Below are positions 27,460 through 61,390 of a stretch of DNA of 64,000 nucleotides, piece after piece. Both the position numbers and the translations under genes were made by a program. The DNA comes from Candidatus Collierbacteria bacterium GW2011_GWB2_45_17 (GTDB lineage Bacteria > Patescibacteriota > Microgenomatia > UBA1400 > MFAQ01). The notes under the pieces were generated by a model. That model saw nothing but the letters and a program-made list of their open reading frames with translations. It was not told where the DNA came from and did not search any database. The stretch lies in contig LCKO01000004.1 in NCBI GenBank assembly GCA_001001485.1, forward strand, positions 4,761 to 68,760. The letters run 5' to 3'. Positions within the stretch are counted from its first letter, which is position 1. Each line of letters opens with the position of its first letter.

Positions 27460-27965
27460 AAAAAAGAACTCAAGGAATCAAGGACTCAAGAACTCAAGAT
27501 GTTGAGAGATTTCTGGTTACAGAGCCGGGGAAGTATGAGTATGAAGTTATTATGGATGAGTTGAATAGTGAGAAAGATCTTTTGGGAATTATAAAGGCAG
27601 AAACCGAGGGAGATTATGAAATAAATCTGTTATCGAGACATGAGGTGGGGAAGACAAAATGTCGAGTAGAAGTCAAAGGAATTGTTTCTAATGGGGCAAG
27701 AGTAAAAGTTAAAGGTCGGGTAAAAATAGACGAGGGAGCTATAGGATCAGATAGTTTTTTGGCCATGAAACTCTTGATGTTGGATAATCGAAGTTTGGCA
27801 GTGGCTGAACCGGAACTAGAAATTGAGAATAATGAAGTCAAAGCCAGTCACAGTGCCAGTGTGGGAAGAATAGACGAAGAACAACTATTTTACTTAGCCA
27901 CTCGTGGAGTTTCTAAATCTGAAGCAGAAAAGTTAATAATTAAAGGCTTCTTGGGGGTAGAATAA
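27456..27965 (+). CDS. sufD: Short SufD-like (SufB/D C-terminal core) protein
   Basis: C-terminal SufBD beta-helix plus HSASVGRIDEEQLFYLATRGVSKSEAEKLIIKGFL. The N-terminal 15 codons are the 8-bp-period repeat (KKRTQGIKDSRTQD). Confidence 0.6.
   Translation: MKKRTQGIKDSRTQDVERFLVTEPGKYEYEVIMDELNSEKDLLGIIKAETEGDYEINLLSRHEVGKTKCRVEVKGIVSNGARVKVKGRVKIDEGAIGSDSFLAMKLLMLDNRSLAVAEPELEIENNEVKASHSASVGRIDEEQLFYLATRGVSKSEAEKLIIKGFLGVE
27462..27505 (+). repeat. 8-bp-period A-rich tandem repeat (gaactcaa ggaatcaa ggactcaa gaactcaa) forming the 5' end of sufD
   Basis: Period-8 units visible directly in the sequence; same family as 29342, 58306 and 60931. Confidence 0.75.
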
Positions 27966-27969
27966 GAAT

Positions 27970-29214
27970 ATGTTGGATGTACAGAAAATTAGGGAGGAGT
28001 TTCCGATACTAAAGCGGAAGATTAATGGACATGATTTGGTGTACTTGGATAGTGGGGCGACGAGTCAGAAACCGGAGAGTGTCTTGAGGGCGATGGATGA
28101 TTATTATCGGAATAATAACGCTAACATTCATCGAGGGGTCTATGACATGTCAGTAGAGTCAACCAGAATGGTGGATGAGGCCAGAGAGAAAGTAGCGAAA
28201 TTTATCGGGGCTAGGACAGAAGAAATAATTTTTACCAGGAATGCGAGTGAATCGCTTAATTTGGTGATGTATTCGTGGGGAAAGAAAAATATTAAAGAAG
28301 GCGACGCTGTTTTGGTGACTCGCTTAGAGCATCACTCGAACTTTGTGCCTTGGCAAGTACTTTGCAAAGAAAATAAGGCGGAGTTTAGAGTTTGGAATGT
28401 TGATAGGGAGGGGAGGTTAGTGGATGAGATTGCTTCGGTTCGGAGTACCGAAACTCGCAATGACGGGAAGGTGAAGTTGATTGCGATGACGGGAGCGAGT
28501 AACGCAATTGGGACCTTGGTGGATATTAAGAAGATGGTGGAGATGGTGAGGAGTAAGAATCCTGATGTAGTGGTAGTTTTGGATGCGTCGCAGATGGTGC
28601 CGCACATGAAGGTGGATGTTTCCAAATTGCCAGTGGACTTTGTAGCTTTTTCGGGACACAAGATGCTGGGGCCAACAGGGGTTGGGGTATTGTGGGGCAA
28701 AAAAGAAGTTCTAAACAAAATGGAGCCATTCTTGTATGGTGGGGACATGATTGGAGAAGTAGGGCTGGAAAGTACGACTTGGGGAGAGTTGCCCAATAAA
28801 TTTGAAGCGGGAACACCAGACATTGCCGGAATAATTGGCTTGGGGGCGGCGGTAGATTATTTGGAAAGTTTGGGAATGGATAATGTCAGAGAGCATGAAA
28901 AAGAGCTGATTGGATATGCTTTGGAGAAGTTTAAGGAATTGGGAGATTTGGTAACAGTATATGGAGTAGATAATGTGGAGGAGAAAGGCGGGGCTTTGGC
29001 GTTTAATGTGAAAGGGGTTCATGCTCATGATGTGGCGCAGGTTTTGAACAACTATGGAATTGCGGTACGATCTGGACAGCATTGTGCCGCTCCACTGGTG
29101 ACCAGTTTTGGAGTGTCGGCGATGGTGAGGGCGACTTTTTATATTTACAATACTAAAGAAGAAATTGATTATTTGGTAGAAAAATTGAAAGAAGTACCAA
29201 AAGTGTTTGCTTAA
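27970..29214 (+). CDS. sufS: Cysteine desulfurase SufS
   Basis: Class V aminotransferase; PLP lysine region FSGHKMLGPTGVGVL, active-site Cys in RSGQHCA; carries the 22-nt repeat (28441-28466) in frame. Confidence 0.9.
   Translation: MLDVQKIREEFPILKRKINGHDLVYLDSGATSQKPESVLRAMDDYYRNNNANIHRGVYDMSVESTRMVDEAREKVAKFIGARTEEIIFTRNASESLNLVMYSWGKKNIKEGDAVLVTRLEHHSNFVPWQVLCKENKAEFRVWNVDREGRLVDEIASVRSTETRNDGKVKLIAMTGASNAIGTLVDIKKMVEMVRSKNPDVVVVLDASQMVPHMKVDVSKLPVDFVAFSGHKMLGPTGVGVLWGKKEVLNKMEPFLYGGDMIGEVGLESTTWGELPNKFEAGTPDIAGIIGLGAAVDYLESLGMDNVREHEKELIGYALEKFKELGDLVTVYGVDNVEEKGGALAFNVKGVHAHDVAQVLNNYGIAVRSGQHCAAPLVTSFGVSAMVRATFYIYNTKEEIDYLVEKLKEVPKVFA
28441..28466 (+). repeat. 22-nt repeat gtaccgaaactcgcaatgacg inside sufS (encodes STETRNDG); second copy at 32962..32983 in an intergenic region
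   Basis: Exact 22-mer in both places; local hairpin ttcgg-agta-ccgaa in the sufS copy. Confidence 0.7.
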
Positions 29215-29622
29215 ATGTCGGACTACAAGGATGAAATTATTGATCACTACAAAAATCCGAGGAACTTTGGGGAATTAGAGAACGCGGATGTGACCATAAA
29301 TGAGGCGAATTCGTCATGTGGGGATGTGGTACAGATACAAATAAGAACTCTAGGAAACAAGAACTCAAGAACTCAAGATAAGGAAGATTTGGTAATAAAA
29401 GAGATGAAGTGGCGGGGGGTGGGGTGTGCGATTTCAACGGCCGCGGCCTCGATGCTGTCGGAGAAAGTGGTGGGGATGGACAAGAGAGACTTGGAAAAGT
29501 TGGGAGAAACGGGGATAATAAAGATGTTGGGTGGCGAGATAAATCCAGGTAGGATGAAGTGTGCCATGCTCGCCTATCGTGGGTTATTGAGAATATTTGA
29601 GGAAAAAAATCAAAAAATCTAA
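29215..29622 (+). CDS. sufU: SufU/IscU-like zinc-dependent sulfur transferase
   Basis: NPRNFGELENADV...CGD...GVGCAISTAAASML, the SufU motifs; contains an about 11-aa in-frame insertion (RTLGNKNSRTQD) relative to B. subtilis SufU. Confidence 0.85.
   Translation: MSDYKDEIIDHYKNPRNFGELENADVTINEANSSCGDVVQIQIRTLGNKNSRTQDKEDLVIKEMKWRGVGCAISTAAASMLSEKVVGMDKRDLEKLGETGIIKMLGGEINPGRMKCAMLAYRGLLRIFEEKNQKI
29342..29382 (+). repeat. 8-bp-period A-rich tandem repeat inserted in frame in sufU
   Basis: aagaactcta ggaaac aagaactcaa gaactcaa gat. Confidence 0.75.
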
Positions 29623-29645
29623 AAATCAAAAACTCAAAACTAAAA
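29603..29645 (+). repeat. 8-bp-period A-rich tandem repeat at the sufU 3' end / next gene 5' end
   Basis: aaaaatca aaaaatct aaaaatca aaaactca aaactaaa; supplies the last codons of sufU and the spurious N-terminal extension of the next ORF. Confidence 0.7.
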
Positions 29646-30286
29646 TGACAAATGATTGGAAATTGATTTTGAAAGTGATTGGAGGGAGCGCCTTGCTCCT
29701 TTTTGTGGTGATCTTTGGACTGTCGAAGATGGCGAGTCCAGATAGCACCCTAAAAGTAGACGAAAAAGTATTGTTGGATGGAGCAAGATTTATTAAAGAA
29801 AATGGGGAAATAAAAGTAACGGTGGTTAATTTTTCGGACATGCAGTGCCCGGCTTGTAAAGCGGCCGACATCCAGACCAGAGAGTTGTTTAGTAAGCCGG
29901 GAGTAAAGATTGTGACGAGACTTTTTCCCCTGCCAGCCAATTTACACCCTTATGCGCTGATTTCAGCTAAAGCGGTAGAGACAGCCCGAATCTTAGGGAA
30001 GGGATGGGAAATGATGACTCTGTTGTATGAAAAGCAAACGGAATGGTCGGCAGTGGACAAACCGGAAGAAAAATTTGCCGAGTATGTGAAGAGTCTGGGA
30101 TTGGATGAAAAAATATTTTTGGAAATGTTAGGTTCCAAGGAGGTGAAAGATAACGTTCAAAGAGACGCCGATTTGGCGGCTTCACTAAGGCTTTCCGGAA
30201 CCCCAACATTTTTTGTCAACGGAGAGCAAGTGGGGGCGCCATTCGTGGTCGGAAAGGTTAAGGAGCTTTTGGGAGAAAAACCATGA
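29645..30286 (+). CDS. DsbA-family thioredoxin-fold thiol:disulfide oxidoreductase, membrane-anchored
   Basis: CPAC active site in VNFSDMQCPACKAAD; N-terminal TM anchor. Start set to MTNDW (29645); the ORF-track start 29597 reads into the repeat. Confidence 0.7.
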   Translation: MTNDWKLILKVIGGSALLLFVVIFGLSKMASPDSTLKVDEKVLLDGARFIKENGEIKVTVVNFSDMQCPACKAADIQTRELFSKPGVKIVTRLFPLPANLHPYALISAKAVETARILGKGWEMMTLLYEKQTEWSAVDKPEEKFAEYVKSLGLDEKIFLEMLGSKEVKDNVQRDADLAASLRLSGTPTFFVNGEQVGAPFVVGKVKELLGEKP

Positions 30287-30969
30287 TTAATATACCGATA
30301 CTGACGGCAACCGCTTTGGCTAACGGACTGAACCCTTGCGGTATTGGAATGCTGATTACTTTTTTGGGATACTTGTTGGTTTTTGGTAGGAAAGGAAGAG
30401 ACAGGAGTTGGTTGTTAAAAACAGGAATGATTTACATTGGCAGTGTTTTTGTGACCTACCTTGTTTTGGGATTGATGTTTTATCAGGTAGCTTTTTACAT
30501 GCAGAGGTGGTGGTTGGCAGGAGTGTTCAAACAAATTCTTGGAGGCGTGATTGTTATCGCCGGACTAATACAGTTGAAAGATGTATTTTGGCAAGACGCA
30601 CCCTTTCATCTGAGAATGCCAAAGATGGGTTTTGAAAAGATCAATAAATTGATGGCCAAGACCAGTTCCGGAGTGACGGTCTTGATTGGAGTATTGACGA
30701 CGATTTTTGCCACTCCATGTATGTTGCCCCTTTATGTGGGAACTACGGCTGTGATCGCCAGATCGGGATTGTCCATGACGGCGGTGCTTGGCTATTTCCT
30801 TTACTATAATTTGATTTTTATTATGCCGCTGATAATTATATTGACGGTGATGGTAGGGGGGAAACAGGTGGTGGAAATGAAAGAGTGGGAACATAAAAAT
30901 ACTGCTTGGATGAGATTTGTTTTGGGGACGGCTTTGGTGGTGATGGGAATAATAATATTTCTTAGATAA
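30283..30969 (+). CDS. CcdA/DsbD-family transmembrane thiol-disulfide electron transporter-like protein
   Basis: Conserved Cys in TM1 (GLNPCGIGML) and TM4 (FATPCMLPLYVG); adjacent to and overlapping the DsbA-like gene. Confidence 0.55.
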   Translation: MINIPILTATALANGLNPCGIGMLITFLGYLLVFGRKGRDRSWLLKTGMIYIGSVFVTYLVLGLMFYQVAFYMQRWWLAGVFKQILGGVIVIAGLIQLKDVFWQDAPFHLRMPKMGFEKINKLMAKTSSGVTVLIGVLTTIFATPCMLPLYVGTTAVIARSGLSMTAVLGYFLYYNLIFIMPLIIILTVMVGGKQVVEMKEWEHKNTAWMRFVLGTALVVMGIIIFLR

Positions 30970-31677
30970 ATGTCTCCAAAAAAACTAATCGGGAAGGTTG
31001 AGTTTAGGGAAAATTTGGCTGGACAAAATTATCTGGTTCGAATCGAATTTGACGAAAAAGTAGATTTTACTCCAGGGCAGTATGTCAGCCTGAAAGTAAA
31101 TAGCGAGGGCTTGAGACGGTCATACTCGGTGGCCAGTTTACCCGAAGAGAAGAGTATCGATGTTCTGGTGGACACAACACCGATGGGAGTGGGATCAAAG
31201 TATATCTTGGGACTCAGAGTTGGTGATGAAGTGGAAGTGTTGGGATTTTTGGGAAATTTTATAATTGACTTTCAAGCCACAGAGAAGGCCAGACACATCA
31301 TGTTTTTGGCTACCGGAACGGGAATCGCTCCGCTGAAGCCAATGATTGAAGATTTGCTATATAAAAGGAGTTTTATCGGAGAGATGAGGCTTGTTTGGGG
31401 AGTGCGACATGAAACGGATCTCTATTGGCTTAAAGAAATGGATAATCTAAACCGCGATTATGATAATTTTAAATTTGATATTGTATTGTCTCAACCAACG
31501 GAGGATTGGCCTGGGTTTAGAGGTCACTTGGGAGGGTTGGTGAACGAGCTGACACAAGACTGGAGTAAGACCTTGGTGTATCTATGTGGTTCACGCGAAA
31601 TGATTGTTGAGATGGAAAAGAGGTTAAAAGAAAAAGGAGTACCCGAAGAACAGATTCATTATGAGAAGTATTACTGA
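30970..31677 (+). CDS. FAD/NAD(P)-binding oxidoreductase (ferredoxin-NADP reductase / PyrK-like)
   Basis: RRSYSVAS (RxYS FAD motif), MFLATGTGIAPLKPMI (NAD(P) motif), YLCGSREMI. Confidence 0.7.
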   Translation: MSPKKLIGKVEFRENLAGQNYLVRIEFDEKVDFTPGQYVSLKVNSEGLRRSYSVASLPEEKSIDVLVDTTPMGVGSKYILGLRVGDEVEVLGFLGNFIIDFQATEKARHIMFLATGTGIAPLKPMIEDLLYKRSFIGEMRLVWGVRHETDLYWLKEMDNLNRDYDNFKFDIVLSQPTEDWPGFRGHLGGLVNELTQDWSKTLVYLCGSREMIVEMEKRLKEKGVPEEQIHYEKYY

Positions 31678-31976
31678 TGATGATTGAAGAAAAAATTCGT
31701 GAGGCTTTGAAAAATGTAATTGATCCGGAATTGGGCGTAAGCATAGTTGATCTGGGTCTCATCTATGATGTTCGATATGAGGCAGGGGAAGCCGAAATAG
31801 AGATGACACTTACTAGCCCAGGTTGCCCCCTGGCAGGGGTAATTGATAAGAAGGTGAGAGAAGTGATGAAGGAAGTACCGGAGATTAAAAACGTCACCAT
31901 AGAACTGGTGTGGGATCCGCCTTGGAGTACCGGAGCGATGTCGGAAGAGCTGAGGGCGGAGCTTGGTATAGACTAA
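31677..31976 (+). CDS. sufT: DUF59/MIP18-family Fe-S assembly protein (SufT-like)
   Basis: VIDPELGVSIVDLGLIYDV...TLTSPGCPLA. Confidence 0.75.
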   Translation: MMIEEKIREALKNVIDPELGVSIVDLGLIYDVRYEAGEAEIEMTLTSPGCPLAGVIDKKVREVMKEVPEIKNVTIELVWDPPWSTGAMSEELRAELGID

Positions 31977-31979
31977 ATT

Positions 31980-32912
31980 ATGGAAAATACAATTAATAAT
32001 ATGGTCGTTGAAGATGAGTTTAAACATGGGGAAACAACTGAATTCGTGGTTGCAAGAGGATCTCGATCGCTAGAGGAAGTGAATGGAAGGTTGGGCTACA
32101 AATATGGCAAAAAAAATGGCTCACTTAAATCGGTCGCAAGTGAAATGTTTAGAGATATAAATAAATTTATGGCTGTGGAAGAACGTGACTGGGGAGCAGA
32201 TGTGTTGGCTGAAACGGGATTACCAGGGACGAAGGTGGTAATAGGAGGGGTCACTGTTTATTTTCATGGGATATCACACAGTCAAGGAAATGCCATAGAT
32301 AAAGGTGTTGGTAAGGAAGAGTTTGATATTTATCTCAAGGAGTGGGTGAATGATACATATTTTGATAAAAAAGAAGGCGTGGTCTTGGAGTCCGGCTTTA
32401 GGCAAGCATATCATATGAATCAGGGAGAACCGGCGGGGGAAGATACTGTAATGGATAATCTCTTCAGAGAGAGCATCGGTAGTTTGTTAATTAATACTGG
32501 AGTTGCAATTGTAATTTCTGGATTTTCGGCCATGATTCGGAGAAATAATATTGAGAGTGGGGTAATTCCCGATTTTCTAAAAAAAGTTATTGATGGCAGA
32601 AAATCAATAAAAGACTTGGTTGATTTGAGAAAATCGTTTTTTAAATTACCACAACCCTTCTGGACATTGCTTCTAGCAGAATTAGCTCCTACTCATGCTG
32701 TTGAAAAATCGATTGTTATGTATCGATTGGGTATGGATAGGGTAAAAGGAGAAAATACAATCCATTTTTTGTGCGGTCTGGATCATGAGCAACATATGGC
32801 AAAACTTGCAAAAGAAGAAGGTCTGTCACGGGTTGGAATGACAATGTTTACAAAAAAAGGTTTGGAGTTGGAAGGTAAACAGCTTTTGGAAAAAATGGTA
32901 GCAGACTCTTGA
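31980..32912 (+). CDS. Hypothetical protein
   Basis: Intact 310-aa ORF; no recognised motif. Confidence 0.35.
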   Translation: MENTINNMVVEDEFKHGETTEFVVARGSRSLEEVNGRLGYKYGKKNGSLKSVASEMFRDINKFMAVEERDWGADVLAETGLPGTKVVIGGVTVYFHGISHSQGNAIDKGVGKEEFDIYLKEWVNDTYFDKKEGVVLESGFRQAYHMNQGEPAGEDTVMDNLFRESIGSLLINTGVAIVISGFSAMIRRNNIESGVIPDFLKKVIDGRKSIKDLVDLRKSFFKLPQPFWTLLLAELAPTHAVEKSIVMYRLGMDRVKGENTIHFLCGLDHEQHMAKLAKEEGLSRVGMTMFTKKGLELEGKQLLEKMVADS

Positions 32913-32927
32913 TTATGGATTGCCACG

Positions 32928-32983
32928 GTTCGGTACCCTCTTTGGGGTATCCATAGAAGTACCGAAACTCGCAATGACGCGAA
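32928..32983. repeat. Intergenic hairpin ggttcggtac...gtaccgaaac, containing the second copy of the 22-nt repeat gtaccgaaactcgcaatgacg
   Basis: Inverted repeat of 9 bp around a 24-nt loop; the 22-mer is identical to sufS 28441-28466. Confidence 0.6.
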
Positions 32984-33000
32984 TAATGTAAGATATTGAT

Positions 33001-33468
33001 ATGAAAGTAATACTGGGGGCGGATCATGGGGGATTTGAAATTAAAGAGAAAACCAAGGTTTGGCTGGAGGAGATGGTGGACCTGCAGGGCCTGGCCCTGC
33101 AGGTGGTGGATGTGGGGAGTGAGAGGAGTGATCCGGATGATGATTATGTGGACTATGCCATGAAAGCGGTACTGGAAAGAAAAGATGATGACAGAATGAT
33201 TTTGTTTTGTCGGAATGGGATGGGGATGGCAATAACGGCGAATAAGCGAAAGGGAGTGAGGTGTGGCTTGGGGTTTGGGTCTGAAGCGGTGAGGAAGGGC
33301 AGGACGGATGATGATATCAACGCTTTGGCGATACCGGCAGACTATTCAACCGATGAGGGAGTAAGAGAAATGGTGAAAATATTTTTGACTACAGAGTTTT
33401 CTAATTCCGAGAGATATAAAGCAAGACTGGAAAAACTTAGTAAACTTGAGGCAATATGGTCACAATAG
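33001..33468 (+). CDS. rpiB: Ribose-5-phosphate isomerase B
   Basis: ILGADHGGF...CRNGMGMAITANK, the RpiB/LacAB pattern; contains a 21-nt perfect palindrome (33085-33105) encoding an inserted DLQGLALQ relative to E. coli RpiB. Confidence 0.85.
   Translation: MKVILGADHGGFEIKEKTKVWLEEMVDLQGLALQVVDVGSERSDPDDDYVDYAMKAVLERKDDDRMILFCRNGMGMAITANKRKGVRCGLGFGSEAVRKGRTDDDINALAIPADYSTDEGVREMVKIFLTTEFSNSERYKARLEKLSKLEAIWSQ
33085..33105. repeat. Perfect 21-nt palindrome ctgcagggcctggccctgcag inside the rpiB coding sequence
   Basis: Self-complementary; shares the ggcctggccct core with the REP-like elements at 39842, 41950 and 62767. Confidence 0.8.
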
Positions 33469-34169
33469 TTCCGGCAATTCTGGAAAAAGATGTTACTTCT
33501 TTTTTGGAGAAGTTTGAGAAGATAAAAGGTAGTTGTAAGCGGGTTCAAGTGGATATAATTGACGGAAAGTTTGCGCCAACAGAGACGGTGATACCGGAGA
33601 TACTACTTAATATAGACACAGTGGTAGATTTTGAAGGCCACCTTATGGTGGAAAAACCGGAAAACTGGGTGGAGAGATGCGCGGCGGCGGGTATGACGGC
33701 ACTTTACGGTCAGGTGGAAAAAATGGAAGATAGAGCCAGGTTTGTGGCCGATACAGAATTTGCAGGCATGAAAGCGGGTTTGGCTTTTGACATCGACACT
33801 CCCCTGGATGGTTTGGAAGAGATAGTTAACGATCTGGATGGAGTATTGCTGATGGGGGTAAAAGCGGGCAGTCAGGGGGTACAGGAATTTGACGCGCGAG
33901 TGCTGGCTAAGATCAAGAAAGTGAGAGCGATGAGTGAATTTGTGACCATTGTGGTTGACGGCGGGCTGAAGGTAGAGAATATTAAAAAGTGTTTGGCGGC
34001 GGAGTGGGCGGAAGAGATAGTTGAGGATGAGTTTAACAAAAGTTTTTTGGGAATGGAGTTTGTGGTGGGAAGTGATTTGTTTGAGGCGCCTGATGTCGCG
34101 GTTGAGTTGGAGAGATTGGAATACTTGACGGAAAAAAATCCTCTGGATTCCGGATCAAGTCCGGAATGA
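33456..34169 (+). CDS. rpe: Ribulose-phosphate 3-epimerase
   Basis: IVPAILEKDV..., VQVDIIDGKFAP, HLMVEKPENW, the Rpe TIM-barrel motifs. Confidence 0.85.
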   Translation: MVTIVPAILEKDVTSFLEKFEKIKGSCKRVQVDIIDGKFAPTETVIPEILLNIDTVVDFEGHLMVEKPENWVERCAAAGMTALYGQVEKMEDRARFVADTEFAGMKAGLAFDIDTPLDGLEEIVNDLDGVLLMGVKAGSQGVQEFDARVLAKIKKVRAMSEFVTIVVDGGLKVENIKKCLAAEWAEEIVEDEFNKSFLGMEFVVGSDLFEAPDVAVELERLEYLTEKNPLDSGSSPE

Positions 34170-34231
34170 CAAGGGTGATGGAGTGAGATTCCTCGACGTT
34201 GCTCGGAATGACGGTGTAGTATAGTTGGGGT

Positions 34232-34855
34232 ATGGCATTTAAGAATTTGAAAGCGGTGACTATTTTTGGATTTGCGGACTGTCAACCAGCCGATCCTCTG
34301 TACAAAGAGACGGTGGAAGTAACCAGGCTTTTGGCTCAGAACGGACTGGAGATCGTTAATGGGGGAGGGCCTGGGGTGATGAGGGCGGCCACAGACGGAG
34401 CTCATGAAGGGGGAGGAGTAGCTTCGGTGGCTACATTTTATCCAAAGTTTATTGAAAATTTTGAAGGAAAAGATCCGCAAAATAAAGCGGATAAAGAGAT
34501 CATCATGAATAACTATGTTGATAGAACCATGAAACTCTTGGAGCTCGGTGATGCTTACGTCATCTTTAACGGAGGAACCGGAACTTTGTCAGAGCTAGGG
34601 ATGGCTTGGGGACTGGCTTATTTGTACTTTGGCCATCACAAACCGCTGATTTTGTATGGTGGTTTTTGGTATCCGATAATTGAAGAATTGGTTAAGAACA
34701 TGAGAATCGGTTCTAGGCCGGGAGCCTTGAGAGTTTATAAAATAGCGACCACGCCGGAGCAGGTTTTGGAGTATCTAAATGAGTTTGATTTGGAAATGCC
34801 TCCTAGGACTGAGATAAAAGATGACTTGAGTGGAGAGAAGGCGTTTATTGAGTAG
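34232..34855 (+). CDS. LOG-family protein (TIGR00730; cytokinin riboside 5'-monophosphate phosphoribohydrolase-like)
   Basis: VNGGGPGVMRAATDGA and FNGGTGTLSELGMAW (PGGxGTxxE motif). Confidence 0.8.
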   Translation: MAFKNLKAVTIFGFADCQPADPLYKETVEVTRLLAQNGLEIVNGGGPGVMRAATDGAHEGGGVASVATFYPKFIENFEGKDPQNKADKEIIMNNYVDRTMKLLELGDAYVIFNGGTGTLSELGMAWGLAYLYFGHHKPLILYGGFWYPIIEELVKNMRIGSRPGALRVYKIATTPEQVLEYLNEFDLEMPPRTEIKDDLSGEKAFIE

Positions 34856-34876
34856 GTGGTTTGGTAAGATGGAGGT

Positions 34877-52008: not shown

Positions 52009-52037
52009 TTTTTGGGTGGTAAAATACTTCATAATTG

Positions 52038-52112
52038 GGGCGACTAGCTCAATGGTAGAGCAAACGTCTTATACACGTTCGGTTTCAGGTTCGAGCCCTG
52101 AGTCGCCCACCA
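52038..52112 (+). tRNA. tRNA-Ile (anticodon UAU), CCA encoded
   Basis: Hand-folded: acceptor GGGCGAC/GTCGCCC, D-arm GCTC-AATGGTA-GAGC, anticodon stem AACGT/ACGTT with loop CTTATAC (TAT), T-arm TCAGG-TTCGAGC-CCTGA, ACCA 3' end. Confidence 0.75.
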
Positions 52113-52115
52113 AAA

Positions 52116-53359: not shown

Positions 53360-53415
53360 GGTTTTAGATACTTTAATTATGTATGGCGCTAATTATAACA
53401 CTCTAGGTCTAGCAA

Positions 53416-53796: not shown

Positions 53797-53926
53797 GGTT
53801 CCGCCCCCTAATTAAGTCGGATTATGAGCCCGACAAGATACTTACCTTCCACCCGCAAATAACGAACACCCATATTTTATCACGGATGGGTGAGCTTGAC
53901 AATTCGGGTAATATATGGGTAAATGA

Positions 53927-54607: not shown

Positions 54608-54636
54608 GGCTAATGCGTGATAAAATAAACGGTAAT

Positions 54637-54708
54637 GGCAGGGTAGCTCAGTGGTAGAGCAAGCCCATCATAAGGGCGAGGTCACGGGTCCGACCCCCGT
54701 CCCTGCTA
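54637..54708 (+). tRNA. tRNA-Met (anticodon CAU; three G-C pairs closing the anticodon stem, initiator-like), CCA not encoded
   Basis: Hand-folded: acceptor GGCAGGG/CCCTGCT, D-arm GCTC-AGTGGTA-GAGC, anticodon stem AGCCC/GGGCG with loop ATCATAA, T-arm ACGGG-TCCGACC-CCCGT. Confidence 0.7.
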
Positions 54709-54710
54709 CT

Positions 54711-55718
54711 ATGAAAAAAAGAATTTTGTCCGGTATAACGCCTAGTGGAAGTGCCTTGCATATTGGCAACTATTTTGGAGCCGTTAAGCCTCAAATTGAG
54801 CTTCAAAACGGGAATGAGACTTATTATTTTGTGGCTGACCTCCACGCTCTGACCACGGTTCAAGACAAGGAGGATTTGGAAAGAAACATAAAAAATGTGA
54901 TCTTGGACTATCTGTCTTTGGGACTTGACCCCCAGAAATGCGTATTTTTTCGACAATCAGATGTACCCGCCCATTCTCAAATGGCTGTAGTTATGGGAAA
55001 TTACGTAACTTATGGTCACATGCAGAGAATGCACGCCTTTAAAGATAAATTGCAGAAGGGTGCCGGATCCGAATCGATCAATATGGGTTTGTTCAATTAT
55101 CCAATACTTATGGCTGCCGATATACTGTTATATAAACCTGAGGCTATTCCCGTCGGTGAAGACCAAAGACAACATGTAGAAATTACTAGGGATATGGCAG
55201 AATCATTCAACAACAAATATGGAAATATACTGGTATTGCCGGAACCTATGATCTCAAAGGCGACCGGTAGGGTGGTGGGTACTGATGGAGAAAGGAAAAT
55301 GAGCAAGAGTCTCGGAAATGTGATTGGAATTTTTGAAGATGATGAAATTATTCGCAAGCAGATAATGAGTAGTTTTACGGATCCGAATAGAAAAAAAGCG
55401 ACCGATCTGGGAAAAGTGGAGGGTAATCCGGTGTTTATTTTTCATGACCTACTGAATGACGATAAGGAGGAGGTGAATGATTTAAAAGACAGATACAGTA
55501 AGGGAATGGTTGGTGACGTGGAGGTTAAGGAAAGACTGATCGTAGCGCATCAAAGGATGTTTCACGAAGCTAAGAAAAGAAGGAAATTGCTAGCGAATGA
55601 TCAAGAAGGGTTGCGAAGTATATTGAGAGAAGGAGCGGAAAAGGCGGCGATGGTAGCCAACGAGACACTAAAAGAGGTTTACACCTCGATAGGAATAATA
55701 AACGGTTTGAATAAATAA
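54711..55718 (+). CDS. trpS: Tryptophanyl-tRNA synthetase
   Basis: GITPSGSALHIGNYFGA (HIGH), YFVADLHALTT, KMSKSLGN. Start at ATG 54711; the ORF-track start 54651 lies inside the tRNA. Confidence 0.9.
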   Translation: MKKRILSGITPSGSALHIGNYFGAVKPQIELQNGNETYYFVADLHALTTVQDKEDLERNIKNVILDYLSLGLDPQKCVFFRQSDVPAHSQMAVVMGNYVTYGHMQRMHAFKDKLQKGAGSESINMGLFNYPILMAADILLYKPEAIPVGEDQRQHVEITRDMAESFNNKYGNILVLPEPMISKATGRVVGTDGERKMSKSLGNVIGIFEDDEIIRKQIMSSFTDPNRKKATDLGKVEGNPVFIFHDLLNDDKEEVNDLKDRYSKGMVGDVEVKERLIVAHQRMFHEAKKRRKLLANDQEGLRSILREGAEKAAMVANETLKEVYTSIGIINGLNK

Positions 55719-55719
55719 A

Positions 55720-56055
55720 ATGAAAGATTTGATTACTTACGGTGACTTTGGAAAACTGGATATAAGAGCCGGGAAGATAGTGGAAGCGAGTGCGCCGGAA
55801 TGGAGCGATAAACTAATTAGATACGAGGTGGATTTGGGAGTAGAACTGGGGAAGAGAGTTCTGTTTTCGGGAATTCGTAAATGGTACAAACCGGAAGACT
55901 TAGTAGGTAAAATTATTCCGGTGGTTATTAATCTGACTCCCAAGAAGATGGGCGATGAGGAGTCACAAGGCATGGCCATCATGGCTGACGGAGAAACGGG
56001 GGCAGTGATGATTTTTTTACCGGACTCGGTTGAGCCAGGAACGGTGATAAGATAG
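55720..56055 (+). CDS. tRNA-binding (Trbp111/CsaA/EMAP-type OB-fold) domain protein
   Basis: FGKLDIRAGKIVEAS...DKLIRYEVDLG...LFSGIRKWY.PEDLVGKIIPVVINLTPKKMGDEESQGM matches the MetRS-C/CsaA family. Confidence 0.8.
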   Translation: MKDLITYGDFGKLDIRAGKIVEASAPEWSDKLIRYEVDLGVELGKRVLFSGIRKWYKPEDLVGKIIPVVINLTPKKMGDEESQGMAIMADGETGAVMIFLPDSVEPGTVIR

Positions 56056-56065
56056 GAAGTTCAAG

Positions 56066-57946
56066 ATGGCAAAACAAACTAAACCACAGACAAAGAAGTT
56101 TGAATTCAGATTTAATCTGAACTTAAGAAGAGTTCTGATGTGGATATTGATACTATTTCTTTTTCTACCAAGTCTGATTAAGTTCTGGTTGGGTTCTGCA
56201 GGAGTAGTAAAAGAAATTCCTTTATCGACGGCCATCGCCGAAATAAAAGCAGGCAAGGTTGAGTCGGTTCAGATAAGAGGACAAGAGCTTATACTTTTGT
56301 ACCCAAAGGAGCTGGACGGTAAACAAGTAATCGGTATGTCCCGTAAAGAGGAAGGAGCTAGCTTTATGGATCAATTGCAGAAAGCCGGCGTGGATGAGGG
56401 TAAAATAAAACTGGAGGTGGTATCTCAAGATCTGATAAATTCATTTTGGAATGTAATGTCTTTGATTTTGCCGATAGTTGGGTTTGGACTATTGATGTTT
56501 TATATGATGAAAAGACAGGGAGGGGGAGCGGACATGTTTGGTATCGGAAAAAGTAAGGCCAAACTCTTTGCTAAGGGAAAACAAAACGTCAAGTTCTCGG
56601 ATGTAGCCGGAGTGGACGAAGCCAAAAAAGAGCTGGAAGAAGTGGTTGATTTTTTGAAAAATCCCAAGAAATACATCGACCTTGGAGCCAGAACTCCCAA
56701 GGGAGTTCTCTTGACCGGTCCGGCCGGAGTAGGAAAAACACTGCTGGCTAGAGCAGTGGCCGGTGAAGCCGGAGTGCCTTTCTTTTCGATGGCTGGATCG
56801 GAGTTTATGGAGATGTTGGTAGGAGTGGGAGCCAGCAGGGTGCGAGACCTGTTCGATACGGCTAAGAAAGCCAATCCGTCGATAATTTTTATCGATGAAA
56901 TAGACGCCATCGGTAGAACTAGAGGTGGCAGTGGGGGTTTTGGTGGTCATGATGAGCGAGAACAAACTTTAAATCAGATTTTGGTGGAGATGGACGGCTT
57001 TACTCAATCGGACAATGTAATAGTACTGGCCGCCACGAATAGACCTGATGTACTGGATCCAGCTTTGGTTAGGCCGGGACGTTTTGACCGCAGAGTAACT
57101 CTAGACCTTCCGGATATCGCCGGCAGAAAGGCTGTTTTGGAGATCCACAAAAAAGGAAAACCCTTTATAAAAGATCTTAACTGGACCAAGGTGGCGGAGA
57201 GAACGGTTGGTTTTTCCGGGGCTGACATCGAGAACATGCTTAATGAAGCGGCCATACTGGCGGCACGAGATAGTCAAAAGGAAATTGAAATGAAAGATAT
57301 TGAAGAGGCGGCCATGAAGGTTAAGATGGGTCCGGAAAAAAAGAGATTACAGTCTAAGCTAGAAAAACAAATGACGGCCTATCATGAAGCCGGGCACGCC
57401 TTGGTAGGCCACTTGTTGCTGGGGACAGATCCGATTCACAGAGTAAGCATTGTTTCTCGAGGAATGGCCCTGGGATATACCATGAGCCGACCCAAGACGG
57501 ATAAATATCAGCAGACCTTGTCTGAATTGAAAGATGAAATCGCGATGATGTTGGGTGGTAGAGCGGCCGAAAAAATCGTTTTTAATGAGCTCACGGCGGG
57601 AGCGGCCAGTGATATTGAAAGAGGAACCATATTAGCCCGAAGGATGGTGGTAGATTTTGGTATGAGTGAGCTGGGGCCGGTGTCTCTTAATCAAACAATA
57701 GATACCAATGCTTGGGGATATGGTGCGGGAGACAGCATTAGACTGTCTGAAGTGATGCAGGCAAAGGTAGACTTGGAAATTAAGAAATTTGTAGACGATG
57801 GCTATAAATTGGCTGAAAGTGTAATCAAGAAGAATAGAAAAATTCTGGATAAAATTGTGGACAGATTGATGAAAGTGGAGACGATTGAGCAAGAAGAGTT
57901 TGAGAAGATTGTTGGAAAGATAAAGCCATCTGTAGACGAAAAATGA
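56066..57946 (+). CDS. ftsH: ATP-dependent zinc metalloprotease FtsH
   Basis: N-terminal TM helices, AAA+ [18 protein letters not shown], Walker [13 protein letters not shown], zinc site HEAGHAL. Confidence 0.95.
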
Positions 57947-58884
57947 GGAAATTAATTCTCATCGATGGTAACGCTTTGCTACATCGAGCGTATCACGCTT
58001 ACCCGCCACTTTCGACACCCAAAGGAGAGCTGGTAAATGCGGTATATGGTTTTTCATCGATGCTGTTGTCGGTATTGGAAAAACTGTCTCCCACTCACGT
58101 GGCGGTGGCTTGGGACCTTAAAGGACCCACTTTTAGAAAACAGGAGTTTGAAGCTTACAAAGCCAACAGAGACCCGATGGATGAGGATTTGGCGACACAA
58201 ATAGACCGAACGAAAGAAGTGGTGGAGAAACTTAATATTCCTCAGTATGGCATCGAGGGTTTTGAAGCGGATGATATTATCGGAACGATCTCAAGGCTGG
58301 CATTCGAAAGAACTCAAGAACTCAAGAACTCAAGAACTCAAGATGAGGATACTCAGGTGGTAATTGTGACGGGAGACAGAGACTCACTTCAATTAATTAA
58401 AGGGAAAAAAGTTGTTGTTTATCTACCGATCCAGAATCATCACGGCCAGTCGGTGGTTTTTGATGAGGACAAAGTCAGAGAGGTTTACGGCTTGAACCCC
58501 AAACAGATAATTGATTTGAAAAGTTTAATGGGAGATGCCTCGGATAATATTCCGGGGGTTAAAGGGGTGGGTAGAGTGACGGCAACCAAATTAATTCAAG
58601 AGTTTGGAAATCTAGAAAATATTTACAAAAATATTAATGACATAAAGATTACTCCAAGAGTGAAAGCCATGTTGTCGTCGGACAAGGAAATGGCTGAAAA
58701 AAGTTTCCATTTAGCGGAAATAAATTGTGACGTACAATTGAAACTCGATTGGGACGATTGTTTGTTAACTAACTATGACAAAAACGGAGCCCTGTCTTTG
58801 TTTGAGGAATTGAACTTTAAGAGTCTGATTAGTAAACTACCTAAAGATTCCTGGGAGAAAGAAATCCAGGATATATTTATATGA
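57943..58884 (+). CDS. 5'-3' exonuclease / flap endonuclease (Pol I N-terminal-domain-like)
   Basis: LILIDGNALLHRAYHA, FEADDIIGT, VTGDRDSLQL, H3TH GDASDNIPGVKGVG; carries an in-frame 12-aa repeat insertion RTQELKNSRTQD. Confidence 0.8.
   Translation: MRKLILIDGNALLHRAYHAYPPLSTPKGELVNAVYGFSSMLLSVLEKLSPTHVAVAWDLKGPTFRKQEFEAYKANRDPMDEDLATQIDRTKEVVEKLNIPQYGIEGFEADDIIGTISRLAFERTQELKNSRTQDEDTQVVIVTGDRDSLQLIKGKKVVVYLPIQNHHGQSVVFDEDKVREVYGLNPKQIIDLKSLMGDASDNIPGVKGVGRVTATKLIQEFGNLENIYKNINDIKITPRVKAMLSSDKEMAEKSFHLAEINCDVQLKLDWDDCLLTNYDKNGALSLFEELNFKSLISKLPKDSWEKEIQDIFI
58306..58346 (+). repeat. 8-bp-period tandem repeat (gaactcaa)x4 inserted in frame in the 5'-3' exonuclease gene
   Basis: aa gaactcaa gaactcaa gaactcaa gaactcaa gat. 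Confidence 0.85.
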
Positions 58885-59993
58885 AAATTGCTTTGGTACA
58901 CGACTTTATGAAGGAGTTTGGAGGAGCCGAGAGAGTGCTAAGAGTGTTGTCCGAGATGTACTCTCAAGTACCCATTTACACCGCTTTCAAAGTATCCGGA
59001 TCCAGCTGTGATAAAGAGTTTGCCGATAGAAAAATTATCGAAAGCTCGTTTGGTTGGCTAATAAAAAGCTTTAACCTGTACAGCCCCTTGAGATTTCTGG
59101 TACCGCTAATTTGGAGGTCAATTGATCTGTCTAGTTATGACTTGGTAATTACTTCCTGTTCCTCATATTTTGCCAGAGGTTTTAAGGTCTCCCCAAAAAC
59201 TTGTGTAGTGGCTTACTGCCACACTCCACCGAGATTTCTTTACGGATATGAAACGAGCATAAATTTACAAAGATTTTGGATAGTGAGAGTTTACGCAGTG
59301 ATTGTTAATCACTTCTTAAGAATTTTTGATTTTTGGTCCTCCCAAAGAGTTGATAAGTGGATAGTGAACTCCGAAAACGTAAAAAGGAGGGTCTGGAAAT
59401 TCTATCGAAAAGAAGCGGAAGTGGTCTATCCACCAATAGATGTTGAGAAAATTATCCGAGAAAGTGAGGGGGTAAAAAAACAGGATTATTTCTTAATTGT
59501 TTCGAGATTGGTGGGAGCCAAGGGATTGGTCGAGGCGGCCAAAGCGGCCAGACAGACCGGCTTTAAACTAAAAATTGTAGGAGAGTCAGTGGGATTTTCT
59601 CAAATAGAAAAACAGCTAAGGAAGATTAGAGAAGTAGAGCTTTTAGGAAGAGTAAACGATAAAAGACTGGGCGAGCTCTATGCCGGAGCTAAGGGGTTTA
59701 TTGCTCTAGCCAGAGATGAGGATTTTGGAATTACACCAGTGGAAGCGATGGCTTCCGGAACTCCAGTGATCGCTTTTAACGGAGGGGGATTTAAAGAGAC
59801 GGTGGTGGAAGGGGTGACCGGTTTGTTAATAAACAATACGGATACGGAAACATTGGAATTGGCGATGAAAAAGTTTGAATCGAAAAAATGGAACAGAGCT
59901 GAACTGGTAGAGCAGGCCAGAAAATTTTCCAGAGACAACTTCGTAAAAAAGATTAGGAAAATAATTGATAAGATGGTCGTGGATGAGAAATAA
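58881..59993 (+). CDS. GT4-family glycosyltransferase (glycosyltransferase group 1)
   Basis: C-terminal EDFGITPVEAMASGTPVIAFNGGG (E-x7-E region) typical of GT4/GT-B enzymes. Confidence 0.8.
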   Translation: MKIALVHDFMKEFGGAERVLRVLSEMYSQVPIYTAFKVSGSSCDKEFADRKIIESSFGWLIKSFNLYSPLRFLVPLIWRSIDLSSYDLVITSCSSYFARGFKVSPKTCVVAYCHTPPRFLYGYETSINLQRFWIVRVYAVIVNHFLRIFDFWSSQRVDKWIVNSENVKRRVWKFYRKEAEVVYPPIDVEKIIRESEGVKKQDYFLIVSRLVGAKGLVEAAKAARQTGFKLKIVGESVGFSQIEKQLRKIREVELLGRVNDKRLGELYAGAKGFIALARDEDFGITPVEAMASGTPVIAFNGGGFKETVVEGVTGLLINNTDTETLELAMKKFESKKWNRAELVEQARKFSRDNFVKKIRKIIDKMVVDEK

Positions 59994-60540
59994 TCTGGCC
60001 TTGAAGGTGTTGTTTATCAGTAACTCGCTTTATGTGTTTGCGGCCTTGCTTCTCGGGCCACTTTACGCTGTCTATGTTCAAAGAATAGGAGGAGGAGTCC
60101 TGTTGGTGAGCGTATCAACGGCAGTGTTTTACGTATCGACGACTTTATTTCTTTTATTTGTCGCTAGGTGGGGAGATATGCTAAAAGAGATGGAACTAAT
60201 GTTGGTGGTTAGTTATATTATTCGAGGCTTGGGATTTTTAAGCTATATTTTTATTGACAGCGCTCTGTTGTTAATCTTGTCGCAGGTTGTTTTTGGTTTG
60301 GCTGAGTCGCTTGGAACTCCGACATTTGGAGCTTTGTTTGCCAAACATATTGATAAAAAAGAAGAAGTAATGGAGTTTTCTGACTGGGCGATGGTGTCGA
60401 ACTTGGTAATGGCTCTAGGAACTATCATTGGCGGCTTTATTGCCAGTAGTTTGGGATTTAATTTTTTGTTTGTAACAATCGCGATTTTGTGCTTTGTTTC
60501 TGCCGGGTGGATATTGTTTACCCCGAGGCAAGTTTTGTAA
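59965..60540 (+). CDS. Hypothetical 6-TM membrane protein (MFS-like half-transporter fragment?)
   Basis: Six hydrophobic helices; no signature motifs. Confidence 0.35.
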   Translation: MIRWSWMRNNLALKVLFISNSLYVFAALLLGPLYAVYVQRIGGGVLLVSVSTAVFYVSTTLFLLFVARWGDMLKEMELMLVVSYIIRGLGFLSYIFIDSALLLILSQVVFGLAESLGTPTFGALFAKHIDKKEEVMEFSDWAMVSNLVMALGTIIGGFIASSLGFNFLFVTIAILCFVSAGWILFTPRQVL

Positions 60541-60541
60541 T

Positions 60542-61390
60542 ATGCCTGAACTACCGGAGGTGGAAACCATTAGAAGACAACTAAAAGAAGTCCTTGTTGG
60601 GAAAACTATCTCTAAGATCGAAGTGTTGCGGGCAAAAAGTTTTGCCGGTGATCCCAAGTCGCTGATCGGCCGGAAGATTAAGGATATACAAAGAAAGTCG
60701 AAAGTAATCGAGGTTTCGTTTGAAGACCACGAGAAGATGGTAACAGTTCACTTAAAAATGACCGGCCAATTGGTATTTGTAGATGGGGAGATGAGAGTTT
60801 CTGGAGGGCATCCGACGGCGGACTGGGTGAATGGCTTGCACAGTAAACATACCCGAGTAGTGTGGACTTTTGATGACGGGTCAAAACTGTTCTTTAACGA
60901 CATGCGCGTGTTTGGATGGATGAAACTAGTAGAAAGAACTCAAGAACTCAAGAACTCTAGGTATCAAGTTCCAGATGTAATAGACAAAGATTTCACAGAA
61001 GACTATCTCTTCAATTCATTAAAGAAGACTAAAAAACCGATAAAGCTAATTTTGCTTGATCAGAACAAAATTGGCGGCCTGGGGAATATCTATGTGAATG
61101 ATGCTTTATTTATGGCCGGGGTAAGACCGGAGAGAAAGACCGACACTTTAGAAAAAAAAGAAGTCAGTAAACTTCACAAAGCCATCGTAAAAGTGATTAA
61201 TCTGGGAATTAAGTATGGAGGTGCCAGTGCCAGTAACTATGTTCAAGTTTCAGGACTGGGTGGAACTTATCAAGATCATTTTTTGGTTTATAAAAGAGAG
61301 GGTCTGAAGTGCCGGGATTGTGAGAGCAAAATTCAAAAGATAAAATTGGGAGGACGAGGAACTTTCTTCTGCCCAAGCTGTCAAAAATAA
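60542..61390 (+). CDS. mutM: Formamidopyrimidine-DNA glycosylase Fpg/MutM
   Basis: Starts MPELPEVETIRR (catalytic Pro2, Glu3); H2TH; C-terminal zinc finger CRDCESKIQK...FFCPSCQ; in-frame repeat insertion RTQELKNSR. Confidence 0.85.
   Translation: MPELPEVETIRRQLKEVLVGKTISKIEVLRAKSFAGDPKSLIGRKIKDIQRKSKVIEVSFEDHEKMVTVHLKMTGQLVFVDGEMRVSGGHPTADWVNGLHSKHTRVVWTFDDGSKLFFNDMRVFGWMKLVERTQELKNSRYQVPDVIDKDFTEDYLFNSLKKTKKPIKLILLDQNKIGGLGNIYVNDALFMAGVRPERKTDTLEKKEVSKLHKAIVKVINLGIKYGGASASNYVQVSGLGGTYQDHFLVYKREGLKCRDCESKIQKIKLGGRGTFFCPSCQK
60931..60968 (+). repeat. 8-bp-period tandem repeat inserted in frame in fpg/mutM
   Basis: aa gaactcaa gaactcaa gaactcta ggtatcaag. Confidence 0.8.

Follow-up and report, generated by a model that had tools for sequence, protein, structure and literature searches.

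A 36-nt tandem-octamer block in housekeeping genes of Candidatus Collierbacteria as a putative family of very small interspersed repeats

A 64-kb stretch of DNA from Candidatus Collierbacteria (henceforth, the window) harbors a 36-nt block composed of 4.5 tandem AAGAACTC units, at a density of approximately 1 per 10 kb. With a probability of about one half, we consider that these blocks define a family of very small interspersed repeats that extends across Collierbacteria and acts as near-neutral or selfish filler DNA. This family is apparently an undescribed relative of the in-frame repeat elements of Rickettsia. The preliminary description of this DNA had invoked Rickettsia palindromic elements (RPEs) as a precedent, and this parallel holds: the block is a multi-copy family whose members are in frame within unrelated housekeeping genes and fall in permissive loops of the products.

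Copies of the block and their host genes in the window

The window was scanned with the 35-nt consensus (AGAACTCA)x4+AGA using a match threshold of at least 23/35, the block itself having the form (AGAACTCA)x4+AGA(Y), with a length of 35-36 nt. The scan yielded exactly six copies, starting at positions 1633, 27465, 29344, 29605, 58309 and 60935 and all (6/6) located on the + strand, against none in block-shuffled sequence, thereby giving a definite value to the "at least six" copies proposed initially. TRF recovered identical arrays, with a period of 8 and 4.5 copies, and the extent of 35-36 nt is common to all six copies, including the two non-coding ones. The GAACTCAA sequence occurs 11 times on the + strand of the window, every time within an array, and 0 times on the - strand; no solo GAACTCAA seeds were detected outside arrays in the window.

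Pfam searches agreed with the host genes named in the preliminary description and identified a SUFBD-core protein (169 aa), NifU_N/SufU, a DSBA-like protein, a 5'-3' exonuclease, Fpg and rpoD, and translation reproduced the encoded peptide RTQELKNSRTQD and its variant units as they had been described. This peptide is encoded by a perfect 36-nt copy (58308..58343, + strand) that matches the consensus at 35/35 positions and lies in the 5'-3' exonuclease gene (57943-58884). The copies in the short SufD-like gene (27456-27965; block at 27464..27499, + strand, 32/35), the SufU gene (29215-29622; block at 29343..29378, + strand, 31/35) and the Fpg gene (60542-61390; block at 60934..60969, + strand, 30/35) map, respectively, to codons 3-14, a beta-hairpin tip and an inter-domain linker. 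The SufU and Fpg blocks encode RTLGNKNSRTQD and RTQELKNSRYQV, and units 2 and 3 of the SufD-like copy are the variants AGGAATCA and AGGACTCA. Two A-rich copies are located at gene ends, also on the + strand. A variant of the AAAAATCA type at the junction between SufU and the DsbA-like gene (29604..29639, 26/35) spans the last 6 codons of SufU and its stop, and is followed after 5 nt by the ATG of the DsbA-like gene. A degenerate block (1632..1668, 24/35) begins within the stop codon of rpoD (1631-1633). Rfam searches of the window and of 17 loci with arrays reported only tRNAs and no match to any other RNA family.

The preliminary description interpreted the intragenic copies as insertions into loops. 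This interpretation applies to the SufU and exonuclease copies, which, as judged by alignment, are true insertions of 11-12 aa. The exonuclease presents 12 additional aa at the block with respect to PDB 6vde, and 33 nt are missing at this location in the closest relative (L111). SufU presents 11 additional aa with respect to 2qq4 and 1xjs. In the AlphaFold AF2 model, the insert forms a coil at a beta-hairpin tip and has the lowest internal pLDDT, in agreement with the loop location put forward earlier. The N-terminal SufD copy corresponds to a 48-nt gap (27461-27508) in the closest relative (L185), equivalent to a 16-aa insertion, and L097 and L045 carry orthologous copies. The Fpg copy, on the other hand, is a length-neutral overwrite, with ERTQELKNSRYQV standing in place of a same-length xKEKYEKEIRKxx segment, so that 12 ancestral linker codons have been overwritten. 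An insertion at this site is ruled out by the unchanged length of the window protein (282 aa, equal to >100 homologues) and by the comparison with 1l1t, which revealed no added length at the block. Surviving copies occupy beta-hairpin tips, inter-domain linkers, first or last codons and gene junctions.

Reading phase, octamer conservation and variation among relatives

The AAGAACTC unit is free of stop codons in each sense frame, every antisense frame contains TGA, and the three sense phases encode cyclic permutations of a single hydrophilic peptide, RTQELKNS. A copy within an ORF can therefore persist only in the sense orientation and with a net length that is a multiple of 3, which accounts for intragenic copies being sense-only (40 sense versus 1 antisense in one scan, 52 versus 4 in another). 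The earlier claim that all copies are in frame is trivially true for intact genes, but related genomes harbor copies in all three phases, and the impression of a shared frame reduces to a 35:8:10 bias in phase counts that include orthologous sites and are hence not independent.

Among 75 distinct copies, mismatches vary with octamer position (chi2 = 108, p = 2e-20), with positions A1, A4, T6 and C7 nearly fixed, and codon position has no effect on them (p = 0.43). Because conservation tracks the octamer and not the codon, the constraint is, on this comparative evidence, one that acts at the nucleic-acid level, and the peptide is not its target. The octamer-periodic pattern favours recognition of the nucleic acid, and would fit either a cis-element or a motif serving the element's own propagation.

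Additional copies were found in many Collierbacteria and Microgenomates contigs. The orthologous slots of Collierbacteria present a patchy mix of empty, short (1.5 units) and long (4.5 units) states, all of which are seen among exonuclease orthologues. Across 120 exonuclease, 120 SufU and 120 Fpg homologues, only in-frame states of 0, 1.5 and 4.5 units were detected, with no 7.5-unit ORF copies. The comparison of lengths across relatives suggested in the preliminary description reveals polymorphism, both in ORFs, where the 1.5- and 4.5-unit alleles are 24 nt apart and the difference amounts to exactly 8 aa in three sister pairs (P0005/P0007, P0006/P0012 and P0008/P0035), and at an intergenic site adjacent to tRNA-Arg, where arrays measure 39, 92, 99 and 172 nt. 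Both perfect (35/35) and decayed (25/35) copies occur at one orthologous site, and an EEKNQKI C-terminal tail is common to a few scattered SufU alleles.

The slots are also used by other elements. In the closest relative, the array of the SufU loop gives way to an unrelated small hairpin element, and a hairpin element, not an array, is found at the SufU/DsbA junction; composite alleles with nested array and hairpin element were seen as well. The exonuclease gene of the window is 100% identical to that of L111 over >300 nt, but close to the array its sequence resembles those of L114 and L022. A 16-kb comparison likewise yields a mosaic of tracts that are either 100%-identical or divergent. Filled, short and empty alleles are scattered over the tree and, given the mosaic genomes, this scatter indicates that homologous recombination moves alleles between lineages. 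The earlier reading had missed both the hairpin elements in identical slots of close relatives and the allele-level homologous recombination that shuffles slot states. A survey of approximately 30 distinct sites, together with comparisons of filled and empty alleles, revealed no mobilising enzyme, target-site duplication, terminal repeat or insertion-site consensus.

Origin and maintenance of the block

If the blocks are filler DNA, new slots would be seeded through templated copying of an existing block, by ectopic conversion or by template switching with purine-rich loop codons as the target, and not through growth of a local seed. Such copying would explain why block length is fixed, why unit variants recur and why the Fpg overwrite is length-neutral. 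Selection would restrict blocks to permissive slots, slippage would resize them (unit by unit outside ORFs and three units at a time within them) and homologous recombination would shuffle filled, short and empty alleles among lineages. The octamer-periodic conservation (A1, A4, T6, C7) further suggests that some factor, be it the copying machinery or a host protein, reads the sequence. Some aspects of the data sit uneasily with filler DNA. The observed patchiness could be explained wholly by a few ancient insertions that later underwent recombination and loss, and position-specific conservation and the excess of one phase (35:8:10) would be unexpected in purely neutral sequences and may signal function. 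Furthermore, a phage-like contig and the non-coding DNA of other phyla also contain AAGAACTC-type arrays, which could point to a general expression-related role, but in a viral collection the unit was present in 3 contigs, a figure similar to those of shuffled-unit controls (2, 3 and 0).

A less likely, though credible, alternative to filler DNA is that the array constitutes a functional cis-element read with an 8-nt period, and kept by selection or spread by molecular drive. Candidate readers would operate on DNA, as a DUS/USS-like uptake/recombination signal or a MetJ-like factor on tandem 8-bp boxes, or on RNA, via an unstructured A-rich leader/standby site or regularly spaced UC dinucleotides recognized by an RNA-binding factor, and copies would be intragenic because these genomes have almost no intergenic space. 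The preliminary description had proposed a cis-element for a factor binding 8-nt sites, and the octamer-periodic conservation, independent of codon position, fits this proposal, but no binding factor was identified. A functional element is also consistent with a four-unit block length that is fixed even in non-coding copies, with arrays that stay near consensus at orthologous sites of diverged genomes, and with the several copies adjoining start codons or SD sequences (29604-29639 in the window; L040, L045, L083 and L137-L141 elsewhere). In the phage-like contig, AAGAACNC arrays lie upstream of SD-ATG in many intergenic regions, all of them on one strand. The RNA of the block and its flanks is predicted to be unstructured (-2.4 kcal/mol over 50 nt). 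The imported tract around the exonuclease array is what uptake-biased alleles would show, but mosaic tracts are found everywhere and not just at arrays. Moreover, the density of the block is roughly ten times below that of DUS/USS, and orthologous copies decay to A-rich sequence, vanish or give way to hairpins with no obvious harm.

More speculatively, the block could be the recognition array of dedicated machinery by which it is actively spread among populations of Collierbacteria, a scenario that we regard as rather improbable. If true, this machinery would be a sequence-specific DNA-uptake/recombination system, or a templated-insertion enzyme writing a fixed 36-nt tandem without target duplication. 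The block would then represent a drive element with an 8-nt-period constraint colonising essential genes, and the hairpin elements found in its slots would either enter by the same route or compete with the block for that route.

It is distinctly unlikely that each copy is an independent local microsatellite, derived by slipped-strand growth from purine-rich loop codons, with no copying between loci and with only in-frame lengths surviving. The slippage hotspot contemplated in the preliminary description is borne out insofar as length change by unit steps is real: ORF alleles are exactly 3 units apart, unit number is highly variable at the intergenic site (39-172 nt), and variable arrays of this and other octamers occur in many phyla. 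Slippage alone is nonetheless insufficient, because the 4.5-unit block is fixed even in non-coding copies, the double-change unit AGGAATCA is found repeatedly at unrelated loci, and the window contains no solo seeds. A single octamer, in a single 4.5-unit block, is present at dozens of unrelated loci, including non-coding ones free of any frame requirement. In addition, growth in 8-nt steps from 1.5 to 4.5 units would frameshift housekeeping genes midway, and 7.5-unit ORF copies are absent from the homologues examined.

Selection on the RTQELKNS-cycle peptide itself, whether as a loop that is flexible and charged, as a site of modification or as a recognition tag, appears highly improbable. 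Such selection would be compatible with three phases that are cyclic permutations of one peptide, with the location of copies in exposed loops and with the favoured phase, but most of the substitutions, which ignore codon position, change the amino acid (R>K, E>K, T>N, L>I). Moreover, some copies do not encode peptide at all, namely 1632-1668, a portion of 29604-29639 and the tRNA-adjacent arrays, and hairpin elements place unrelated peptides into the same loops. Lastly, an assembly or sequencing artefact, or chance low-complexity sequence, for which nothing specific speaks beyond the presence of short tandem repeats in a metagenome-assembled genome, is effectively refuted by the copy statistics (6 observed versus 0 expected), the intact reading frames, the identical exonuclease protein on 22 contigs from several sources and the independent assemblies carrying the same arrays at orthologous sites.

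Comparison with known repeat systems

The DUS of Neisseria and the USS of Pasteurellaceae are single 10-12-bp motifs present at approximately 1 per kb in both orientations. They are over-represented genome-wide, tolerated in ORFs, conserved at the nucleotide level, common to related recombining lineages and tied to recombined tracts. The block may share these features, with 6 copies versus 0 expected in 64 kb and a presence across Collierbacteria, but it is a 4.5-unit tandem, found at approximately 1 per 10 kb and only in the sense orientation within ORFs. With contingency SSRs it shares a slippage-prone unit whose length is not a multiple of 3 and a copy number that is polymorphic between close relatives. 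Contingency loci, however, switch one locus on or off by frameshift, whereas >300 orthologues of three host genes show only in-frame states, the hosts of the block are housekeeping genes, and one block is dispersed over many loci. REP/MITE-like hairpins are also small interspersed repeats, and the hairpins detected here use array slots and nest within arrays; the array, in contrast, has no inverted repeats, TIRs or target-site duplication. Only the tandem 8-bp geometry matches that of the MetJ operator, whose boxes are located in promoters of a regulon and are bound by a cognate ribbon-helix-helix repressor, whereas copies of the block are mostly intragenic.

A closer structural analogue is provided by the multicopy elements of four tandem hepta-/octanucleotide repeats of Geobacter metallireducens (Aklujkar et al. 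2009, PMC2700814), which also comprise dozens of intragenic and intergenic copies of approximately four 7-8-nt units, with a function that is only guessed in both cases. Their units (GGACCGG, GTTGCTYN and others) are unrelated in sequence to the block, so that the class they define is descriptive and implies no homology; in Geobacter, some sites form inverted pairs, with IS elements located at a constant distance, and the Geobacter paper reports no analysis of reading frames or of gain and loss among orthologues.

RPEs are multi-copy elements that are present in frame in unrelated housekeeping ORFs, where they are translated as additional surface segments that the proteins tolerate without loss of function, and also in intergenic regions (PMC10969869). 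They are palindromic and span approximately 100-150 bp, whereas the block is a 35-36-nt direct tandem of an 8-nt unit that cannot fold and is resized by unit slippage. Although the sequences and phyla involved are unrelated, the block, like RPEs, lies in frame in unrelated ORFs and adds a surface segment to their products.

Arrays in the window and their host proteins

TRF reports four period-8 arrays of 4.5 copies (27464-27499, 29343-29378, 29604-29639 and 58308-58343), one of 3.0 copies (60934-60957) and an A-rich variant array of 2.6 copies (1632-1652), all on the + strand of the window. A scan of the window with the 35-nt consensus, (AGAACTCA)x4+AGA, identified exactly six sites matching at least 23 of 35 positions, all on the + strand and in one common register; neither the - strand nor block-shuffled window sequence has any. 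These results bear out the tandem-octamer family proposed in the preliminary description. Furthermore, the 11 occurrences of GAACTCAA in the window are confined to arrays. By Pfam, the host genes are those for a SUFBD-core protein (169 aa), NifU_N/SufU, a DSBA-like protein, a 5'-3' exonuclease and Fpg, together with rpoD; their translations carry RTQELKNSRTQD and its variants, and the predicted peptides across insert junctions would include LAFER/TQELK/NSR/TQDEDTQVVIVTGDR.

The window has a strong, uniformly positive GC skew (0.04-0.40) over all its 64 kb and the majority of genes lie on the + strand, so that array orientation is inseparable there from the direction of replication or transcription. 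Rfam matched nothing but tRNAs, both in the window and in 17 loci bearing arrays. The window 'SufD' gene (27456-27965), whose start at 27456 overlaps the SufB stop (ATGA), encodes only 169 aa, and its SUFBD-core match comprises the C-terminal part alone (profile positions 93-232).

Relative to solved homologues, the array accounts for an insertion of 12 aa in the exonuclease (6vde) and of 11 aa in SufU (2qq4 and 1xjs). In an AlphaFold model of SufU, the hairpin E37-47/E59-69 has a coil tip made of residues 48-58, where internal pLDDT is lowest. The insertions previously proposed for these two proteins are upheld. The closest relative of the window (L185) has a 48-nt gap in place of the N-terminal copy of the SufD-like gene. 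The Fpg copy had also been taken for an insertion, but the window protein has 282 aa, as do more than 100 homologues, shows no added length against 1l1t, and has ERTQELKNSRYQV aligned column for column with the ancestral linker xKEKYEKEIRKxx. This copy is a length-neutral overwrite rather than an insert.

Slots shared by arrays and hairpins in related genomes

At the exonuclease site, 120 homologues define three states: empty (RMASEDED; 302 aa), short (AFE-RTQD, 1.5 units; 305 aa) and long (4.5 units; 313 aa). These states are intermixed on a tree from which the insert region was left out; the window's long allele has empty alleles as sisters, and the members of three sister pairs (P0005/P0007, P0006/P0012 and P0008/P0035) are exactly 8 aa, or 3 units, apart. 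Older copies have decayed into A-rich forms (KTQKNKNSKTQD; locus L113) that resemble the two non-coding copies of the window. Another hot spot lies at the tip of the SufU hairpin, which, depending on lineage, is empty or holds an octamer array, an unrelated insert (WIPGQARND, GLPRSARND, SPTSRKASLGAG and others) or a composite. A second hot spot in Fpg, the QLVFV|DGE hairpin, has genuine array insertions in other lineages. Either octamer arrays or 7-aa inserts are seen in this hairpin across those lineages, and the 291-aa Fpg of the closest relative (L111 12567-13442) has a 9-aa non-octamer insert there (YSTRSQISGDRSQEK).

Array length is free outside ORFs, with arrays of 39, 92, 99 and 172 nt at a tRNA-Arg site bearing a duplicated tRNA 3' half. 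At such loci (L141 9599-9965; also L137, L139 and L140), tRNA-Arg(CCG) is followed ~150 nt on by a copy of its 3' 35 nt, an att-like direct repeat, and the array, 39-172 nt between contigs, begins immediately after this copy. Collierbacteria-type genes and arrays, the latter at orthologous SufU, SufD and exonuclease sites, are also present in L034, L070, L078, L097, L103 (CAYTOI01) and other binchicken MAGs labelled 'uncultured Pseudomonadales', a label that looks wrong.

The closest relative carries hairpin elements exactly in the window's two SufU-region array slots (L185 6130-6170 and 6395-6440), with GGATCCCCGCATTCGCGAGGATGAC replacing the window array in the SufU loop and GGATTGCCACAGCACTTCGTGCTTCGCAATGAC replacing the A-rich array at the SufU/DsbA junction. 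Moreover, octamer arrays in a related MAG labelled Woesebacteria contain or adjoin an in-frame palindrome of 21 nt, CCATGCCTGCCGGCAGGCAGG. For the exonuclease gene of L022, the same allele without the palindrome, L152, provides a clean filled/empty pair, with junctions (AGA/GGA...GGA) that give a hint of 3 duplicated nt. The simplest reading of slots shared by arrays and hairpins is a selection filter, several repeat families piling up and alternating in them because few slots tolerate inserts in genomes nearly devoid of spare DNA. The palindrome was also seen in L065, L069, L083, L181 and protein P0010.

Very small dispersed hairpins with the pattern GATTSC...GSAATGA make up a second family, which has three copies in the window against 0.47 expected: one within SufS (28425-28466), in frame and encoding EIASVRSTETRNDG, one at the end of ORF 33456-34169 (34143-34170) and one intergenic (34184-34213). 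In L185, the outer stem of the SufS hairpin is kept, and the inner stem differs but pairs nonetheless (EIATTRQGGSRNDG).

Compared with its closest relative (L111/L185), the window is a mosaic in which 100%-identical tracts alternate with tracts of 50-90% identity. The exonuclease gene is identical to L111 over more than 300 nt, whereas the immediate surroundings of the array are closer to L114 and L022. Array-bearing alleles therefore travel by homologous recombination, which can generate the patchy distribution of arrays with no need for several insertions at one site. A segment of ~1 kb (54708-55700) within a class-I tRNA synthetase gene (ORF 54651-55718) has only ~50% identity to L111, its upstream flank being 100% identical, and looks like an allele or gene replacement in a mosaic genome.

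Origin of the blocks and constraint on their sequence

We favour, with a probability of about 0.5, the reading that the blocks are a family of small interspersed filler repeats, which selection would restrict to permissive slots, slippage would resize, recombination would shuffle between lineages and templated copying of an existing block would seed in new slots.

Mismatches to the consensus were analyzed in 75 distinct copies from Collierbacteria-type contigs. Mismatch rates are low at octamer positions A1 (1.6%), A4 (6%), T6 (7%) and C7 (5%) and high at G2 (18%), A3 (14%), C5 (19%) and A8 (13%), the commonest changes being G2>A, A3>G and C5>A. Mismatch depends strongly on octamer position (chi2 = 108, p = 2e-20) and shows no dependence on codon position (8.4%, 10.5% and 9.2%; p = 0.43); what is constrained is therefore the nucleic acid, DNA or RNA, rather than the peptide. 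This octamer-periodic conservation, together with copies adjoining start codons, speaks for the main rival explanation, a cis-element that is functional or driven and is read with 8-nt periodicity, which we consider possible but doubtful. The array has no secondary structure. Likenesses to the 16S AAACTCAAAGGAATTGACGG region, the BpuEI site CTTGAG, the IS608 TCAA cleavage site and Rho YC-dimer spacing were judged coincidental.

For the filler repeats, the templated-copying step is suggested by a fixed block length that is held in non-coding copies too, by recurrent unit variants (e.g. AGGAATCA) at unrelated loci, by perfect and decayed copies sharing one orthologous site and by the Fpg overwrite. 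Growth of each array purely in situ, as a microsatellite, would dispense with this step and appears unlikely to us. We found neither a mobilising enzyme nor a target-site duplication or target motif for the octamer blocks. A 5'-to-3' conservation gradient, as LINE-like 5' truncation would leave, was suspected by eye but is not supported by the mismatch rates per unit index (0.118, 0.108, 0.110, 0.085 and 0.098).

That the peptide is the selected object is highly improbable given the codon-blind mismatches; copies occupy all three reading phases with one in excess (35:8:10, orthologous sites not being independent). The window exonuclease protein is 100% identical to one of Candidatus Collierbacteria bacterium GW2011_GWB1_45_35 and present on 22 contigs, and an assembly artefact can therefore be dismissed.

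None of the 8 cyclic trinucleotides of AAGAACTC is a stop codon, and its complement contains TGA, which reaches all three frames within 24 nt. Because of this, intragenic copies lie in sense orientation (40 sense vs 1 antisense in one scan and 52 vs 4 in another, by ORF-based gene calls). The open-sense, closed-antisense property permits residence in ORFs and is no evidence of adaptation; a 'design' reading was rejected, since by our own calculation ~68% of random octamers contain no stop codon when repeated in tandem.

Scanning 185,579 genomes with the 20-mer yielded, among the matches listed, more than 110 loci in many phyla, with multi-copy genomes comprising an Acidobacteriota MAG, Chthoniobacterales, Bacteroidales and Paenibacillus. 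Arrays in these genomes are intergenic and variable in length, and frequently lie between stop codon and terminator or directly 5' of an SD-ATG. A universal cross-phylum element, which these matches first suggested, is not claimed, because shuffled-unit controls in the viral collection give comparable contig counts (3 for the real unit vs 2, 3 and 0). Given these controls, lone matches outside the clade may be ordinary octamer SSR background, the multi-copy genomes alone being meaningful.

A phage-like contig (L117/L119; IMGVR_UViG_3300001533_002010, 36.5 kb, GC 59%) has AAGAACNC arrays of up to ~17 units in many intergenic regions, all on the same strand with none on the opposite one and several reaching an SD-ATG, as well as other 7-8-nt repeats (GAATGAA, AATAATCA). 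In Chthoniobacterales, Acidobacteriota and soil metagenome contigs (L056, L088, L089, L106, L014, L086, L127, L131, L135, L151, L175 and L178), a AAGAACTC array adjoins a conserved core (GAACCAACAGTCTCGCGCCGAGGTCCGCAT...). At the loci whose downstream flank was read, the core is succeeded by the array in inverted orientation, which makes the whole a foldback, MITE-like composite; it has no Rfam match.

Significance and relation to known systems

We found no earlier description of the octamer element: no paper was found with the array 16-mers or the hairpin-derived peptides, and nothing relevant on in-frame repeats in the Candidate Phyla Radiation (CPR). If confirmed, the element would extend Rickettsia-type translated intragenic repeats to the CPR with a different architecture, a non-palindromic tandem whose unit is open in all sense frames, and its blocks would be concrete markers that can be counted to follow plasticity in protein loops, recombination and the turnover of repeats in very small genomes with almost no intergenic space. 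The codon-blind, octamer-periodic conservation also raises the testable question of which factor reads an 8-nt repeat. In practice, the blocks inflate apparent protein divergence and open alignment gaps in SufU, Fpg and the Pol I-type exonuclease, marker genes for CPR phylogeny and annotation.

The octamer element is not a MITE, a contingency locus or an Rfam family. The Rickettsia palindromic elements (RPEs) invoked as precedent in the preliminary description are a partial match: the octamer element works like them (PMC10969869, for the RPEs) but lacks the palindromy and length that define them. As a description, it matches the class reported in Geobacter metallireducens, in which four tandem hepta/octanucleotide repeats occur both within and between genes (PMC2700814), although the sequences are unrelated.
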